Positions 1,156 to 6,893 of a stretch of DNA of 15,250 nucleotides are shown one piece after another. The notes under the pieces are model-generated. The model was not told where the DNA came from, searched no databases, and saw nothing but the letters and a program-made list of their open reading frames with translations. Position numbers and translations under genes: made by a program. The DNA comes from Promethearchaeota archaeon (GTDB taxonomy: Archaea; Asgardarchaeota; Lokiarchaeia; Sigyniarchaeales; SOKP01), in NCBI GenBank assembly GCA_019057865.1, contig JAHLWP010000061.1:1-15250 (forward strand), in the 5' to 3' direction. Numbering within the stretch: position 1 is the stretch's first letter; each line of letters begins with the position of its first letter.

Positions 1156-2559
1156 TCACTCAATGCAACAACTTATAACAGATATATCTCGTTTGAATGA
1201 TTGAGCTGTAAGTTTAATAGCTTCTGACAATGTAGGAAAAACGTGTATTGTGTTAATAACATCATCGAGTGTCATATGGTTCTTAATAATCATAACACCC
1301 TCATGAATTAAATCAGCAGCATTAGTAGATAAAATGTGAATACCTAAAATTTCTTCGGTTTTTCTATTGATAACGATTTTTAGTACTCCTCTATCTTCAT
1401 TAATGATTTTTGATTTAGGTACAAAACCAATTGGAATAGTATTACATCTGCAATCAAAACCCATTTGATTTGCTTGGAGATCAGTTAAGCCGACACTTCC
1501 AACTTGAGGGTTGGTAAAAATGGCATGTGGAACTACTCGATTTTCCATTTTAATCTGTTCATCTGATAAAGCATTAGTAGCAGCAATCATACCTTCTCTT
1601 GCAGCAACAGTTTCGTACATTGGTTCACCTATAACATCTCCAGCAGCCCATATATTTTCTCCTACCTTCATAAATTCGTTAACGATAATTTGTCCCTTCT
1701 TTCCTAAATTTATTCCAATTTCTTCTAATCCTAGATTGTGAGTGTTAGGCTTCCTTCCTGTTGCAATTAAAATTTGTTCTGCTTTAAATGTTGACTCATT
1801 GTTATTATGAAGTACTTTTATTACGTTCTCATTACCTTCATTTTCGATTTCAAGTATATTTGCATTTGTATAAATCTCGATTCCCTCATCTTGAAGATAA
1901 TTTTTTAAATATGTAGAGATCTCAGGTTCTTCATTTGGTACTATGCTATCCAGCATTTCAAAAAGATGAACTTTTGTCCCAAATCGAGAAAATAATTGAG
2001 CAAATTCAACCCCTAAAGCACCCCCACCTAAAACTATCATAGTCTTTGGGAGCTTTTTTAATTGAAGTGCTTCAATGTTAGTGATATAATCAACTTGGTC
2101 AATACCCTTTATTGGTGGAATAAAAGATGAGGAACCTGTAGCAATTATAAATTTCTTTGCTTTGAATGTTTTTTGGTTATCCACTTGAATTTCTGAGTTT
2201 GAAACAAATTTAGCATTACCTTCAACAAGATCAACGTTTGGTAATTTTTTCAAAACATTTTCATATTTATCATGCTGCAATTGGTTGATGAGATTATTTT
2301 TTCCCTCGATGACTTTTTGAAAATTAAAAGAAATCGATGATTTGATCCCTTCAAATCTTTGCTTTCTCGATTCGTAAATTAAATCTCCGATATTTAGTAA
2401 ATATTTTGTTGGAACACACCCTACATTTACACATGTTCCACCTAATCCTATTGCATCGTTATTTACCATTAGGGTTTTAATTTTTAAATCATTAGCTTTC
2501 ATTGCAGCAGCAAATCCAGCAGCGCCTCCGCCAATAATAATTAAATCATAAAAATCCAT
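1156..2559 (-). CDS. merA: Mercuric reductase, core form without NmerA domain
   Basis: GGGAAG FAD motif, redox GGTCVNVGCVP, GGGALG NAD(P) motif, C-terminal vicinal cysteines SCCIE. HVFPTLSE lacks the catalytic His of lipoamide dehydrogenase. Adjacent to a merB-like gene. AGGTGA RBS precedes ATG 2559 (the track starts at GTG 2568). Confidence 0.9.
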   Translation of the reverse strand: MDFYDLIIIGGGAAGFAAAMKANDLKIKTLMVNNDAIGLGGTCVNVGCVPTKYLLNIGDLIYESRKQRFEGIKSSISFNFQKVIEGKNNLINQLQHDKYENVLKKLPNVDLVEGNAKFVSNSEIQVDNQKTFKAKKFIIATGSSSFIPPIKGIDQVDYITNIEALQLKKLPKTMIVLGGGALGVEFAQLFSRFGTKVHLFEMLDSIVPNEEPEISTYLKNYLQDEGIEIYTNANILEIENEGNENVIKVLHNNNESTFKAEQILIATGRKPNTHNLGLEEIGINLGKKGQIIVNEFMKVGENIWAAGDVIGEPMYETVAAREGMIAATNALSDEQIKMENRVVPHAIFTNPQVGSVGLTDLQANQMGFDCRCNTIPIGFVPKSKIINEDRGVLKIVINRKTEEILGIHILSTNAADLIHEGVMIIKNHMTLDDVINTIHVFPTLSEAIKLTAQSFKRDISVISCCIE

Positions 2560-2784
2560 TTTTATCACCTATTAATTAAAATTATAAATTTTTGATACAA
2601 TATTGTCATTTGATTAATAGATAATAATACTTAATTCTAACTATAATTCTTGTTATTATAAAATATTAAAAAAAGAAGATTTCTATTCTTAACCAATAAC
2701 TAATTTTAATATTCAATTCACATTGTAAAAATGATTAAAGAAAATTAATTTTTGTGAGATCCCTAACACTAAATTATTCAGTTA

Positions 2785-3645
2785 TTATTCGCAACATTTA
2801 TCCTTATTATCAGTTGATGGTATCTCTAACCATTCAATATTTTTTTGATCTTGGTCAATAGATATTTCACAACTTGGAACACAGTCTATATCTAATCTTT
2901 TCTCAAAAATCTTCCGAGCTAAAATTAGTGCCTGTTTCATATTTATAGTCGTACCTTTTTGATCTGGATGTTGTTTTTCCCACTCTTTAAGACTTTCATT
3001 TGAAATAAAAAATAAAGTAGTAGAACATTGGGATCCCAGATATGTGATTAGATTTTTAGGTTGTTGCAATGCAATTTGCTCATCTTTAATTTCAATTTTA
3101 ATTTCTTGTTTAGTTATGGGATCTTTTGACAAAATCGTAGCATCTTGATTGTATGTGAAAGGAAGACCCAGTGCATCAATAACACAAGCAGCCTCAATTG
3201 GTTTGAGAGTTCTTCCATCTTTTAATATAACCTTATGCTCATATCCAATTTTAGAGATACGTGGAACTATTTTGTCATCAACATCTTTTTTTCTATGAAT
3301 TACTCTTCTCTTCTCAAGTTTTGTTATTATTTCTTCTAGATCCTGAGGAGAAATATTTAATTCTTTTCCAATTTCATTAAAAGTGTTAATAATATCGTAC
3401 TTTGAGTATTGTTCTACAATGTAATCAAAAACTTTTTCCTGACTTGGAGTCATCCCAACTTGAGGAAATCCTCTTTTAACAAATTGTAAAACAAGTTTTT
3501 CTTCAAGCTGTTCGTCGTAATTTAATTTTAGAGCTCTTTTAATTTCTTCAATGTCCGGAAAATGATGATATTGCTTATATTCACTTAACAAATATGTTAG
3601 AATCTTTCTTTCTTTAAGTGTTAATTTTGAGTCGATACTTCTCAC
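2785..3645 (-). CDS. merB: Organomercurial lyase MerB-like protein with extended N- and C-termini
   Basis: AACVIDAL (C154, D157) and SQCSTTLFF (C207) match the MerB Cys-Asp-Cys triad. ATILSKDPITKQEIKIEI matches the S-x-C-P-x-T-G segment, and SLKEWEKQHP matches the C-terminal helix. Directly upstream of merA. Confidence 0.8.
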   Translation of the reverse strand: MRSIDSKLTLKERKILTYLLSEYKQYHHFPDIEEIKRALKLNYDEQLEEKLVLQFVKRGFPQVGMTPSQEKVFDYIVEQYSKYDIINTFNEIGKELNISPQDLEEIITKLEKRRVIHRKKDVDDKIVPRISKIGYEHKVILKDGRTLKPIEAACVIDALGLPFTYNQDATILSKDPITKQEIKIEIKDEQIALQQPKNLITYLGSQCSTTLFFISNESLKEWEKQHPDQKGTTINMKQALILARKIFEKRLDIDCVPSCEISIDQDQKNIEWLEIPSTDNKDKCCE

Positions 3646-3802
3646 TTTTCAACATCCTTTGTAAATGTAAAATAGTTAGAAATAAACCTATTCCAACAAT
3701 GGTCTAATATTTATGCTAATTAATAATTTTTTATTTTTATTCTCTAGATTAAGAAAAAAGAAATATTAGATTTATGTTAAAAATTCGAGATCGCCATCCC
3801 GT

Positions 3803-3838
3803 CTCAACCAATAACTAGCATTTGCTTATTGGCATCAT
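3803..3838 (-). promoter_or_regulatory. Eukaryote/Lokiarchaeia-type SECIS element in the 3' UTR
   Basis: Minus-strand RNA: A-UGAU GCCAAUAA GC AAA UGCUAG UUAUUGGU UGAG. It has an AUGA/UGA core, an 8-bp upper stem and AAA 10 nt above the core, and starts 8 nt after the TAA of a gene with in-frame UGAs. Confidence 0.8.
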
Positions 3839-3846
3839 TGATTTTT

Positions 3847-4059
3847 TTATATTGATTTTTTTTCTCTTTCTTGAATTTGTAATCAGGGAACGCTACCATA
3901 TGCACAAAGTACTCAATTTCATCCATGAGGATTTTCTTTCCCAGTAATGATTTCTTTACAATTTTGACATTCAAGACTCATAAGTCATTGATTTTCCTTT
4001 ATTTCTACTGCATTTGAATATCTGCAAAATGGACATTCTACTAGGCATTTATATATCAT
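3847..4059 (-). CDS. GDCCVxC-domain selenoprotein, 70 aa, four in-frame UGA codons read as Sec
   Basis: Manual translation: MIYKCLVECPFCRYSNAVEIKENQULMSLECQNCKEIITGKENPHGUNUVLCAYGSVPULQIQEREKKSI*. UGA at 3987-3985, 3921-3919, 3915-3913 and 3885-3883. Fits the family pattern CPxC...C...ECxxC...GDCCVFCSYGSVPCPPIQ as I recall it. SECIS immediately downstream. Confidence 0.85.
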
Positions 4060-4084
4060 ATTGGTCAGTTAAAAAATTATTAAT

Positions 4085-4100
4085 AGATTTATTTAAATCT
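4085..4100 (-). promoter_or_regulatory. TATA-like box (TTTAAATA) within a perfect palindrome AGATTTA-TT-TAAATCT
   Basis: Lies about 30 nt upstream of ATG 4059, the spacing expected for a leaderless or short-leader archaeal transcript. The sequence is AT-rich, so chance is possible. Confidence 0.35.
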
Positions 4101-4162
4101 TAAGTAAAAACTCTTAAGTATATTAAAAAGTATATTGAGAAAAAAATACTTCTAGTATTAAA

Positions 4163-4417
4163 CTAACTGTCTTCGATAATCTTTTTAATCTCATCTGGTT
4201 TTGGAATCCCAATAATTTTATGTTTCTCATCAACAATGATGGAGGGAACAGCTTTAATGTCATATTTCTCAATTTTTTCCCGTATCTCTTCTTGAATTAG
4301 ATCTTGTAAATTGTATTCAATTATTTCACATTTTTCGCAAATGTTATTCCTCAATATTTCAATAGCATTTTTACATAAATTACATCCAGCACTAAAAATT
4401 TCAAATTTATGTCCCAT
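4163..4417 (-). CDS. Small thioredoxin/glutaredoxin-fold protein (CxxC plus a second CxxC)
   Basis: FEIFSAGCNLC active site, ICEKC, and the IKAVPSIIVD cis-Pro motif. Confidence 0.85.
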   Translation of the reverse strand: MGHKFEIFSAGCNLCKNAIEILRNNICEKCEIIEYNLQDLIQEEIREKIEKYDIKAVPSIIVDEKHKIIGIPKPDEIKKIIEDS

Positions 4418-4576
4418 TTAAGTTTAACTCCAATTTATTATATTGATTACTATATACTATCATTACTTAAATATTTTCAATTATCATCCAAGTACATTTT
4501 GGATATGAAAATCTAATAAAGGATTAAATAATTTTAATAACCTTATAAGAGACTAAATTAATCCACACTTTTCTGC

Positions 4577-4927
4577 TTATGATTGAATTGACTTTTTATG
4601 AGCCCACTCCATGAGAGGTATCATTGCATCTTTCACTTCTATGCCATCTTGCGTCAATGTATATTCGACTCTTGGTGGAATTTCTGCGAAATTTTCTCTT
4701 TTTATAAGCTCTGCTTTTTCTAATTCTTTTAATCTTATTGATAAGGTTCTTGGACTTATTCCATCTAAATTTTTCATAAGTTCATTAAATCTAATTCTTT
4801 TATTATTACTAATTGTACCAATAATTACCAATGCCCATTTTTTACTTAAAACTTCAATAACTCCTTCAATCGGGCAAAAACATATCCCATTTTCCTCTGT
4901 ATTGTTACATTTAGAATTAGTATTCAT
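4577..4927 (-). CDS. HxlR-family (DUF24) winged-helix transcriptional regulator with Cys-rich N-terminus
   Basis: CPIEGVIEVLSKKWALVII, RFNELMKNLDGISPRTLSIRLKELE and EIPPRVEYTLT motifs. Confidence 0.92.
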   Translation of the reverse strand: MNTNSKCNNTEENGICFCPIEGVIEVLSKKWALVIIGTISNNKRIRFNELMKNLDGISPRTLSIRLKELEKAELIKRENFAEIPPRVEYTLTQDGIEVKDAMIPLMEWAHKKSIQS

Positions 4928-5084
4928 ATTGATAGTAAATCACCTTATTTTTACTTACTATGCTACTATACACTTGTTAATTTAAATACTTTACTATTTA
5001 TACTTAATATATAATATATAGCAATTAATTAAAAATTTATTTATTGGAATTAATATAAAAAAAATTTTTGGAGGAAATAAAAAA

Positions 5085-5219
5085 ATGTCTAATCAACTTA
5101 AGCCAGTAAAAGATTTGGAACCTCTTAAGGAAGATGATAGTTGCGTTTGCGGTTGTATAAGCTCAAATGATAGCAACTGTGAAGAAGAAACAACATCAAA
5201 TGAAAAATGTTGTGAGTAA
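5085..5219 (+). CDS. 44-aa acidic Cys-rich micropeptide, metallothionein-like
   Basis: MSNQLKPVKDLEPLKEDDSCVCGCISSNDSNCEEETTSNEKCCE*. GGAGG RBS at 5070-5074, divergent from the HxlR gene. Not in the ORF track. Confidence 0.7.
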   Translation: MSNQLKPVKDLEPLKEDDSCVCGCISSNDSNCEEETTSNEKCCE

Positions 5220-5578: not shown

Positions 5579-6058
5579 CTATAATCTCCTCTGAGAATTT
5601 ATAATAGCAAGTTGAGTTCCCTTACCATATCTTATCCACATCTTACAAAAATCTATAAAATTATTTGAAAAATCATGAAATACAATAGATCTACTCTCTT
5701 TCGCAAAGTAGTATCCTCTTTTTCTTAGTCTTAAACATAAATCTGTGTCTTCTCCTCCAGCAAAAGAAAAATTGGTATTGAATCCTCCAATTTCGATTAG
5801 TGGTTCCTTTTTAAAGCAGCAATTTACTGTGGGGATGTAATTCAAGTGTCTAGGAGCTTCGAGTATCTTATGTTCTGTATAATATTGACTAAGAATATCA
5901 TTATTAACGGATTTAACTACACCACCACTACCAACTAATTTCACTTCGCTTTCATTTAGCTTTAGAGTAACAAAATTTATCCAATATCTATGAACAATGA
6001 CATTATCGTCAGTAAAAGCTACTAAGTCATTATTTGAAGTCGTGAATAGCCCTCTTTT
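5579..6058 (-). pseudogene. N-terminally truncated family 2 glycosyltransferase
   Basis: The frame is open upstream of the track's GTG: KRGLFTTSNNDLVAFTDDNVIVHRYWI (DxD region), then IGGFNTNFSFAGGEDTDLCLRL and RYGKG. The N-terminal GT2 strands and a start codon are missing, with a stop at 6145. Confidence 0.75.
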
Positions 6059-6228
6059 ACAAAATCGTAATCGAGAAGCTCGATCTTTTCTGGAATTATT
6101 TTCAAGAGGAGTTTTCTTTTTCCTCGAACAATTTTTTGAACCTTATCAAACTCTTTATCCCCTTCTCTTAAAAAGATCAGTCTTTTTTTCCCAGATGCTG
6201 AAATTTCCATGCCTTGTATTTTACCCAT
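6022..6228 (-). pseudogene. Probable C-terminal fragment of a pyridoxamine 5'-phosphate oxidase-like (FMN split barrel) gene
   Basis: KIQGMEISASGK and LLKIIPEKIELLDYDFVKEGY resemble the PNPOx-like C-terminal strands. Resemblance from memory only. Confidence 0.35.
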
Positions 6229-6350
6229 TAGGTGAGTGTGGATTTTTCGCTCGTTTACAATAGTTTTTGGAATTTATAATTTATAGATGAAGATTTTAAA
6301 TTATTAACTGATATCTTTTTTATTACTAAATATATTAATGATGATATTTA

Positions 6351-6476
6351 ATGGCAAAAATAGAAGTTGCATGCAAAGCATGTGGAATGAAGTTTAAAGG
6401 AAAAACGGAAGAAGAAGCAAAAAAGAAGTTGATGGAACACTCTCAAAAGGCTCATCCTATGCCCAAAAAGATGTAA
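6351..6476 (+). CDS. 41-aa C2H2-type small metal-binding protein (DUF1059-like)
   Basis: MAKIEVACKACGMKFKGKTEEEAKKKLMEHSQKAHPMPKKM*, with CxxC...GxTEEE...HxxxxH. A T-tract follows at about 6509-6522. Not in the ORF track. Confidence 0.75.
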   Translation: MAKIEVACKACGMKFKGKTEEEAKKKLMEHSQKAHPMPKKM

Positions 6477-6893
6477 ATAGACGTTTAATAGGTCTTTATA
6501 ATATTCACTTTTTTCTTTTTTTAATGAGTATATAAGTATCCTAATATTTATTTAAAGGTCTACTTATCGACATTATTCATTCTAGAGAAAAACTCCTTTA
6601 CTTCTTTACAAAATTTGGAAAAAATTACAATAGAAGTTAATAAAAGTTTCTTAGAATGAGGAAGGATGTATTTTATTTGAGATAAAAATCAACCATTTTT
6701 TGATGTCTAAAATATTTATAAAAAAGATTGAAGGAATGGAATAGTCTTGATGTAAAGTTTTGAAGGTGTAAAATACTTCAAATGAGTTAAAGGATAGTTT
6801 TTCAGTATACTCAGAAAATGTGAGTAGGTTAATATTAGAATCTCCATATTATTTAATATTAAATAATTAAAAACTTGAAAAATCTGATTTAAT

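Follow-up and report, generated by a model that had tools for sequence, protein, structure and literature searches.

A mosaic island in a Loki-type Asgard archaeon that combines a mercuric reductase, a predicted four-selenocysteine GDCCVxC protein and a MerB-family variant

Archaeal mer loci typically consist of merA alone or of merA with a gene for a small metal-binding protein, as in the Sulfolobus/Saccharolobus locus, where an arsR-type merR is followed by merH, which codes for a TRASH protein, and by merA (PMC3466566). Both merA and merB were reported in 2025 in Asgard/Lokiarchaeota metagenome-assembled genomes (MAGs; PMC12484752). A selenocysteine-assisted organometallic (SAO) system has been described in Clostridioides difficile and other anaerobes (bioRxiv 10.1101/2022.07.06.499078), and the small GDCCVxC family has been listed as a functionally uncharacterised bacterial selenoprotein with one selenocysteine (Sec, U), under the names 'GOS_B' or 'hypothetical protein GOS_B' (PMC2398784; table in PMC13188914); no papers were found under the name 'GDCCVxC', the family being in print only as 'GOS_B'. 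The published Asgard selenoproteome comprises seven families, and GDCCVxC is not among them. Here we describe a 15,250-nucleotide stretch of a Promethearchaeota archaeon (positions 1 to 15,250 of contig JAHLWP010000061.1, assembly GCA_019057865.1), referred to in the following as the window, in which merA lies in one gene cluster with a predicted GDCCVxC selenoprotein gene and a MerB-family gene. This cluster is probably a mosaic accessory island for the detoxification of mercury or soft metals, located beside a resident pair of genes for an HxlR regulator and a cysteine peptide in a Loki-type Asgard lineage.

The window has a G+C content of ~29% and belongs to a genome of 4.26 Mb in 87 contigs, which is 99.7% complete with 5.15% contamination. 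A preliminary description of this DNA, made from its letters alone, had named an HxlR regulator, a CxxC thioredoxin, a Sec protein, merB, merA and a divergent cysteine peptide; all six genes, five on the minus strand and the peptide gene on the plus strand, were found where it had placed them, between positions 1156 and 5219. Outside this region the window carries sugar and redox enzyme genes. The features of the region are the following:

1156-2559, minus strand: merA, coding for a core mercuric reductase of 467 residues without NmerA (TIGR02053).
2687-2708, minus strand: decayed copy of the 3' half of the selenocysteine insertion sequence (SECIS), then a degenerate hairpin and a T-run, in the spacer between the merB-like gene and merA (repeat families D3/D5, alignment A3).
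2785-3645, minus strand: gene for a MerB-family protein of 286 residues with two N-terminal winged helices, a MerB core and a tail ending in KCCE (PF03243).
3779-3801, minus strand: second conserved hairpin (3786-3801) and T-run (3779-3783), 3' of the SECIS (alignment A1, minimum-free-energy fold).
3804-3838, minus strand: predicted eukaryote-like SECIS in the 3' untranslated region (UTR) of the GDCCVxC gene (covariation in A1, covariance model).
3847-4059, minus strand: predicted GDCCVxC/GOS_B gene of 70 codons with four UGA read as Sec (NF041374).
4163-4417, minus strand: gene for a small, cytoplasmic thioredoxin-fold protein of 84 residues with the motif CNLC (Thioredoxin_3).
4577-4927, minus strand: gene for an HxlR-type winged-helix regulator of 116 residues with an N-terminal CFCP motif (PF01638).
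5085-5219, plus strand: gene for an acidic cysteine peptide of 44 residues (CxCxC ... CCE) with a GGAGG motif upstream (conserved homologues, divergent from the HxlR gene).

Three of the products terminate in a vicinal cysteine pair, with the endings SCCIE in MerA, KCCE in the MerB-like protein and KCCE again in the third.

The merA product scored 539 bits against TIGR02053 (cut-off 454.45) and is the sole MerA above that cut-off in the genome. The open reading frame (ORF) caller had set its start at a GTG at 2568; the likelier start is the ATG at 2559, preceded by an AGGTGA Shine-Dalgarno-like motif. The best matches in the PDB were mercuric reductases, namely 5x1y from Lysinibacillus, 4ywo from the archaeon Metallosphaera sedula and 1zk7, the Tn501 core. 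Signature residues were judged by the criteria of Christakis et al. (PMC8261052) and of Boyd and Barkay (PMC3466566). The redox cysteine pair (207/212 in Bacillus numbering) is kept, the segment GGTCVNVGCVP aligning with all three structures, and so are the C-terminal vicinal cysteines (628/629), where the end ISVISCCIE aligns with the SCC of the same structures, and the equivalent of Tyr264, the tyrosine of a KY pair. At position 605, which under those criteria is Tyr in bacterial and Phe in archaeal MerA, the protein has the archaeal-type Phe (HVFPT here versus HMFPT in 4ywo). Its N-terminus begins at the FAD-binding GxGxxG motif, and there is no NmerA/HMA domain. By sequence, this protein is a true NmerA-less mercuric reductase, as had been proposed. 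The distribution of merA in the phylum is patchy, with the gene present in 22 of 301 Asgard genomes. A decayed second merA is apparent on contig C23 of the same genome (91173-92004; L097:7174-8005, minus strand), next to an ArsR/Acr3 cluster with a double-Sec ORF that is described below; it consists of three frame-shifted or stop-broken fragments covering model positions 182-464, the last of which scored 119 bits.

The frame at 3847-4059 matched NF041374 with 44.3 bits (cut-off 40) over profile positions 3-57 of 58 when U was scored as C. Its four UGA codons correspond to U25 (3985-3987), U47 (3919-3921), U49 (3913-3915) and U59 (3883-3885), and the zinc-ribbon cysteines C9, C12, C31 and C34, together with C52, remain Cys. 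In an alignment with its homologues (A2), nine Cys/Sec columns and one Gly are invariant; invariant cysteines of the all-Cys homologues stand opposite U25, U49 and U59, and the Asp of GDCC stands opposite U47. Following a three-residue insert, the name motif reads GUNUVLC, in which Sec replaces the Asp and Asn the first Cys of GDCC. A phylum-wide six-frame search recovered all four TGAs in 11 other genomes from five genera of the window's own order, at fixed positions in proteins of 32-84% identity, as well as all-Cys forms of the protein in three other families. An AlphaFold2 (AF2) model of the protein reached a predicted local distance difference test score (pLDDT) of 91; a Foldseek search of this model against the PDB returned nothing beyond generic zinc ribbons and nothing at E <= 0.001, and no TRASH or YHS domain was matched in the protein. 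Public protein sets, queried by a word-indexed search, contain the gene only as four TGA=W mistranslations without names. The idea that the Sec frame is spurious was dropped on the family hidden Markov model match and the conserved TGAs. Another TGA-containing frame of 65 codons (3777-3974) was rejected, since it had no family and no support. From this conservation the 3847-4059 frame is predicted to be a real selenoprotein gene of the GDCCVxC/GOS_B family (Sec4 hereafter). The suspected Sec protein thus appears real, and across genomes it is tied to merA and to other metal genes. In several relatives (G231 at L039:5977-5984, and L045, L046 and L047) the stop codon of the Sec4 gene is itself UGA; that of G231 lies within the AUGA core of the SECIS, so that coding sequence and SECIS overlap.

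The SECIS begins 8 nt past the stop codon and is composed of an AUGA core (3835-3838), an 8-bp helix, an apical loop with a conserved AAA and a 3' GA (3804-3805). The eSECIS-like 3'-UTR element described in Asgard archaea has an AUGA...GA core, a helix and apical A's (PMC11227280). The alignment of 10 genomes (A1) shows no variation in the UGA of the AUGA core or in the A of the 3' GA. Compensatory changes occur in six of the eight helix pairs with 91% of cells paired, and the observed covariation was reached by 0 of 500 shuffles. The second hairpin is 77% paired across these genomes, mostly with one-sided changes, and is present in the minimum-free-energy fold; T-runs follow it in homologous loci, and together they likely form the transcript end or an accessory stem. 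A covariance model (R1), built solely from these GDCCVxC SECIS elements, also matched an element in the same genome that lies 10 nt downstream of a FlpD/MvhD gene carrying two in-frame UGAs. FlpD/MvhD is a known Asgard selenoprotein (PMC11227280), which argues that R1 describes the genome's working SECIS type. The genome also encodes SepSecS (390 bits), adjoined by a tRNA-Sec candidate with a UCA anticodon (C41:175206-175322; L003:1501-1617, minus strand). This candidate scored 34.6 bits, under the Rfam gathering score of 47, because it has a 31-nt insertion in its T-arm region. With plain ARAGORN the genome yielded just 13 tRNAs, a low count that introns in many tRNA genes would probably explain.

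Two ORFs of ~160 codons with adjacent TGA codons (Sec-Sec) were also seen in this genome, at C57:15393-15911 (L089:1034-1507, plus strand) and C23:88311-88851 (L090:1553-2044, minus strand), each followed by a strong R1 SECIS match (52 and 41 bits), and a further one was present in genome G144 (L046:1900-2330). They contain the motifs HADUUAD and SGCUUEK, and matched no Pfam or NCBIfam family. The C23 gene comes after an Acr3-type (SBF) pump gene divergent from ArsR, and the G144 gene sits between the genes for an ArsM-like methyltransferase and a Sec4 GDCCVxC protein. These ORFs are candidates for an unrecorded selenoprotein family in arsenic clusters.

A GDCCVxC gene followed by merA, either directly or across only an inserted MerB-like gene, was found in G222, G231, the window and MAG DZ3M.28, that is, in every sampled genome with both genes. 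In G222 a gene for a P1B ATPase comes after merA, and P1B ATPases with HMA/YHS domains flank the GDCCVxC gene in G222, G228 and G255. Bacterial all-Cys GDCCVxC genes stand in mer gene sets at three of the five plasmid loci inspected, with the contexts merR-merT-merP-GDCCVxC in Pseudomonas, merC-merT-GDCCVxC-FAD oxidoreductase in Croceicoccus, and arsR-merTP-GDCCVxC. A role of the family in mercury handling is supported by these bacterial mer sets with all-Cys homologues, in one of which the gene immediately precedes that of a MerA-like flavoprotein.

The MerB-like protein matched PF03243 with 69.7 bits (cut-off 27; E 3e-19) at residues 137-248, and its N-terminal 130 residues matched LexA_DNA_bind and MarR. 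Aligned to MerB2 (5c17), it keeps the Cys96-x-x-Asp99 motif (as CVID) and Cys159, the cysteine of GSQC. Eleven Asgard homologues, 73-94% identical, all share C154, D157 and C207. At the metal site there is one Cys, with neither a CU motif nor a TGA, and the window contains no ABC transporter and no SaoE-like gene such as belong to the nine-gene SAO neighbourhood. A Sec at the C-terminus was ruled out, as read-through of the homologues gave plain stops. The AF2 model of the protein, made with 11 close homologues, had a pLDDT of 61 (~50 in the MerB core), which is too poor to judge the pocket and supports no claim. Homologous loci come from MAGs of Promethearchaeota, Hermodarchaeota, Hodarchaeota and Promethearchaeia, in agreement with the Asgard lineage suggested beforehand. 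MerB had also been thought uncommon in archaea; PF03243 genes occur in 25 of the 301 sampled Asgard genomes and in 12 of 70 genera, and merA/merB had already been reported there (PMC12484752), which weakens this view. In another Asgard family (G134, C2:125539-127626), merA is directly followed by a short MerB-domain gene (~190 residues), which indicates that the phylum contains further merA-merB pairs whose MerB is of a different type.

The thioredoxin-fold protein matched Thioredoxin_3 with 42 bits; the MJ0307 and MTH895/ArsE families are nearest to it, under their cut-offs, and it gave no match to SaoT. Its gene adjoins or neighbours the MerB-like gene on contig C61 of the same genome and at loci L052 and L058, with a 4-nt gene overlap in L058, and it travels with the MerB-like gene and not with merA. 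The HxlR protein scored 78 bits against PF01638 (cut-off 20.8), and other HxlR paralogues flank thioredoxin or MerB-like genes on C61 and at L056. Full-length homologues of the 44-residue peptide, 61-74% identical, were found in five other genomes of the family with all five cysteines (CxCxC and the terminal CC) conserved, and matched no Pfam or NCBIfam family. Judged by its conservation the peptide gene is real, and the HxlR/peptide pair appears from synteny to be a resident flank of the island.

Comparison of gene orders provided information on the history of the island. A distance of ~850 bp separates the HxlR gene from a homologue of window ORF 96-929 in G121; in the window, the segment 1156-4417 intervenes between the two and is thus considered an insertion. 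The order Trx-GDCCVxC-MerB-like-MerA (Trx, thioredoxin-fold gene) recurs in MAG DZ3M.28. A second copy of Trx-GDCCVxC (four TGAs) with its SECIS and the MerB-like gene, without merA, is located on the 6.7-kb contig C61 (L008:1083-3190), where a divergent, different HxlR gene (49% identical) stands alongside; protein identities to the window are 80% for the thioredoxin, 90% for GDCCVxC and 94% for the MerB-like protein. This copy may be a true paralogue or may reflect strain heterogeneity, the MAG contamination being ~5%. The MerB-like gene is preceded by a spacer that shares homology with the spacer upstream of merA in G231. Within the 2569-2784 spacer, the 2687-2708 element matches 3802-3823 (D3/D5), and alignment A3 places it with the GDCCVxC 3' UTRs of both the window and G231. 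Its 5' edge is exactly the point at which homology with the C61 copy ends, and the element is probably a recombination scar. Spacer homology and the decayed SECIS half fit the insertion of a MerB-like gene into an older GDCCVxC-merA pair. On these comparisons, the clustering of the genes is not due to chance, and the locus reads as a mosaic and not as one fixed operon, with GDCCVxC-MerA as a recurrent pair and Trx-MerB-like as a second module.

MerT, MerC and MerR_1 gave no match anywhere in the 99.7%-complete genome, and HMA domains were found only inside two P1B-type ATPases on another contig. The window itself contains no MerR, transporter or genuine membrane-spanning ORF, hydrophobic scores being confined to antisense shadow frames. 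The absence of MerR and of a membrane transporter from the window was confirmed in this way, and no merR/merT locus acting in trans was found in the genome either; the lack of MerR, MerT/MerP and NmerA had been taken as non-canonical, but it is instead the archaeal norm (PMC3466566). An Rfam scan and a tRNA search of the window gave no matches, and the five intergenic regions, when scanned for a common operator, yielded only short AT-rich repeats that were indistinguishable from chance.

We propose the following scheme for the island. Its gene identities, Sec recoding, synteny and missing parts are read from the sequence, whereas metal specificity, direction of transfer and regulation are inferred. 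The archaeal-type MerA would use NAD(P)H to reduce Hg(II) in the cytoplasm to Hg(0) through its CVNVGC pair and the C-terminal Cys-Cys. The GDCCVxC protein would retain an all-Cys structural zinc ribbon and carry its four Sec, decoded through the single eukaryote-like SECIS, in a second Cys cluster; with it, the protein could bind Hg(II), or soft metals like it, at very high affinity and would then either feed the C-terminal cysteines of MerA, a job like that of NmerA or of Sulfolobus MerH, which Schelert et al. reportedly described as a chaperone, or buffer the metal. The thioredoxin and the MerB-family protein would have been recombined into the GDCCVxC-merA pair, the latter cleaving Hg-C or related metal-C bonds with release of Hg(II) and the former keeping thiols and selenols reduced or helping to strip the metal. 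Hg(II) and organomercurials would enter without dedicated uptake proteins, and control, if any, would come from HxlR-type thiol-sensing regulators and not from a MerR. A thiol/selenol relay from MerB through the small proteins to MerA is plausible and purely inferred. That Sec4 GDCCVxC is a dedicated selenol-based chaperone or trap for Hg(II), acting together with the NmerA-less MerA and, in this island, with a MerB-like lyase too, is advanced only tentatively.

Several observations weigh against this scheme, and they bear on the rival explanations. The preliminary description had proposed an all-cytoplasmic relay in which the small proteins replace NmerA and MerP; in its full form, this reading joins the six genes into one dedicated, co-regulated system, with the HxlR protein sensing Hg and the peptide, the thioredoxin and the Sec protein passing Hg(II) from MerB to MerA in place of MerR, MerP and NmerA. 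The co-orientation of the five minus-strand genes with a divergent peptide gene, the three terminal vicinal cysteine pairs, the HxlR paralogues beside thioredoxin or MerB-like genes and the lack of MerR, MerT, MerP and MerC in the genome are in line with it. However, the divergent HxlR/peptide pair (HxlR 91-96% identical) is conserved in three or more other genomes, where the 12 kb examined contain no mer gene, as befits a flank of the insertion; the thioredoxin and peptide genes are missing from the GDCCVxC-merA loci of G222 and G231; the C-terminal Cys-Cys of the MerB-like protein is present in only seven of its 11 homologues; and intergenic gaps of 100-216 bp, the terminator-like T-run after the SECIS hairpin and likely separate promoters divide the cluster into separate units and disfavour a single operon. 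Six genes forming one system is unlikely on these grounds, and of the expected company of the small genes with merA/merB the pairs GDCCVxC-merA and Trx-MerB-like were recovered in the synteny survey, whereas HxlR/peptide was not. The scope of the Sec4 protein is another matter. Selenolates bind soft metals very tightly, and Hg-selenolate bonds are stronger than Hg-thiolate bonds. Downhill transfer of Hg from Sec4 to the MerA cysteines is for this reason not obvious, and the tighter hold of a four-selenolate site on Hg(II) would make the protein a sink or sensor as much as a relay. A MerA above cut-off is absent from eight of the 11 other four-Sec genomes, which indicates that the protein is not mercury-specific by distribution. 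It could serve nearby efflux or detoxification enzymes as a general sink or chaperone for soft metals and metalloids (As, Cd, Cu, Ag, Hg), in accordance with its location beside P1B ATPases in G228 and G255 and behind the ArsM-like methyltransferase and the Sec-Sec protein in G144, and with bacterial Cys forms among copper and HMA genes. On the other side stand the position of merA as the next resistance gene after GDCCVxC wherever it occurs in these genomes and the three plasmid mer sets. We consider a general sink quite possible, though short of probable.

The function of the MerB-like protein is similarly debatable. Its closest NCBIfam model is SaoL (NF040728; 73 bits, cut-off 140) and not MerB, with 36 and 31 bits against the two MerB models (NF009710 and NF033555; cut-offs 193 and 200), so that all scores are under cut-off. 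At position 117, 21 residues after Cys96, it has Asp and not the Cys117 of the canonical class, which places it in the '117alt' class of PMC8261052, where lyase activity is putative. Orthologues of 73-76% identity lie in five MAGs (L053, L055, L056, L057 and L059, around 6001-6860 of each) in a ThiF-TusA-ThiS-NMT1-like ... MarR-MvhD(FlpD)-HdrA-like setting, which hints at a sulfur/selenium-carrier role rather than mercury; most orthologues being in this setting also counts against the six genes as one system. The two N-terminal DNA-binding-type domains were modelled with pLDDT 70-95. The protein might then be no organomercurial lyase and instead a metal- or organometal-sensing transcription factor, or a sulfur, selenium or organometallic enzyme akin to SaoL that came to stand beside merA secondarily. 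Yet the Cys-Asp-Cys catalytic triad is invariant, two independent genomes have the MerB-like gene between GDCCVxC and merA, and both the CU motif and the SAO neighbourhood are missing. A helix-turn-helix-like domain (Pfam HTH_15) is likewise present at the N-terminus of canonical MerB; that model gave no score here. The non-lyase alternative is accordingly rather doubtful in our view, and the name "merB" is right as to family and triad and wrong as to canonical MerB, the protein being assigned on its residues and scores to a MerB-family variant. It is very improbable that the TGA-rich frame is a pseudogene or chance frame, or that the contig is mis-binned or chimeric. For such an artefact one could cite the MAG contamination of 5.15%, the near-identical Trx-GDCCVxC-MerB-like copy on the 6.7-kb contig and the TGA=W mistranslations as the only public record; the four TGAs, however, are fixed across five genera and align with Cys in Cys-form relatives, the SECIS covaries, and genomes of the same family share synteny with the flanks (HxlR/peptide and ORF 96-929).

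If the Sec4 protein does act as a selenol chaperone or trap for Hg(II) together with MerA, the mosaic island would represent the first selenium-dependent mercury-resistance system, and selenium use and mercury detoxification would be directly coupled in anaerobic sediment archaea. This would bear on models of Hg and methylmercury turnover in marine sediments, where Asgard carriers of merA/merB have recently been reported. The gene would add one family to the published Asgard selenoproteome, and with four Sec and a single eukaryote-like SECIS it lends itself as a small natural model for the study of multi-UGA recoding. For annotation, the Sec4 gene is invisible to standard callers, and public sets carry it mistranslated.

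Compared with the canonical broad-spectrum mer operon of the Tn21/pDU1358 type (merR-T-P-(C)-A-B-D), the island likewise has MerA and MerB-family genes side by side and the same logic of cleaving Hg-C and then reducing Hg(II). Unlike that operon it has no MerR, MerT, MerP, MerC, MerD or NmerA, its 117alt-type MerB carries an additional winged helix, and its accessory proteins are cytoplasmic thiol/selenol proteins. As in other archaeal mer loci, its MerA is NmerA-less with Phe605, and MerT, MerP and a bacterial MerR are lacking; in contrast to them, a MerB-family gene and a thioredoxin gene are added, and the nearby regulator is of the HxlR and not of the ArsR type. With Sulfolobus merH-merA it shares a gene for a small Cys-rich metal-binding protein just upstream of merA, although here this is a GDCCVxC zinc-ribbon protein with four Sec and not a TRASH protein. 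The bacterial GDCCVxC mer operons have the same small-protein family in the same place before a MerA-like flavoprotein (Croceicoccus plasmid), but their members are all-Cys or have one Sec with an in-frame bacterial SECIS, whereas the protein of the island has four Sec with a 3'-UTR eukaryote-like SECIS, the motif GUxUVxC, a three-residue insert and no MerT/MerP alongside. The SAO system resembles the island in its MerB-like protein, small thioredoxin-like protein, Cys-Cys-ended proteins, Sec in Cys-packed metal sites and anaerobic host; it differs in that the island has no ABC importer, SaoE exporter or DsrE-like protein, its MerB-like protein is without CU and under the SaoL cut-off, and its thioredoxin has no SaoT match. 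The true MerA of the island, which SAO lacks, points to detoxification. Overall, the island recalls both the Sulfolobus merH-merA logic and the SAO system, yet it is a member of neither; particular to it is the union of Sec4 GDCCVxC, a 117alt MerB-like protein, a thioredoxin and MerA, and it looks like a selenium-using variant of mercury detoxification.

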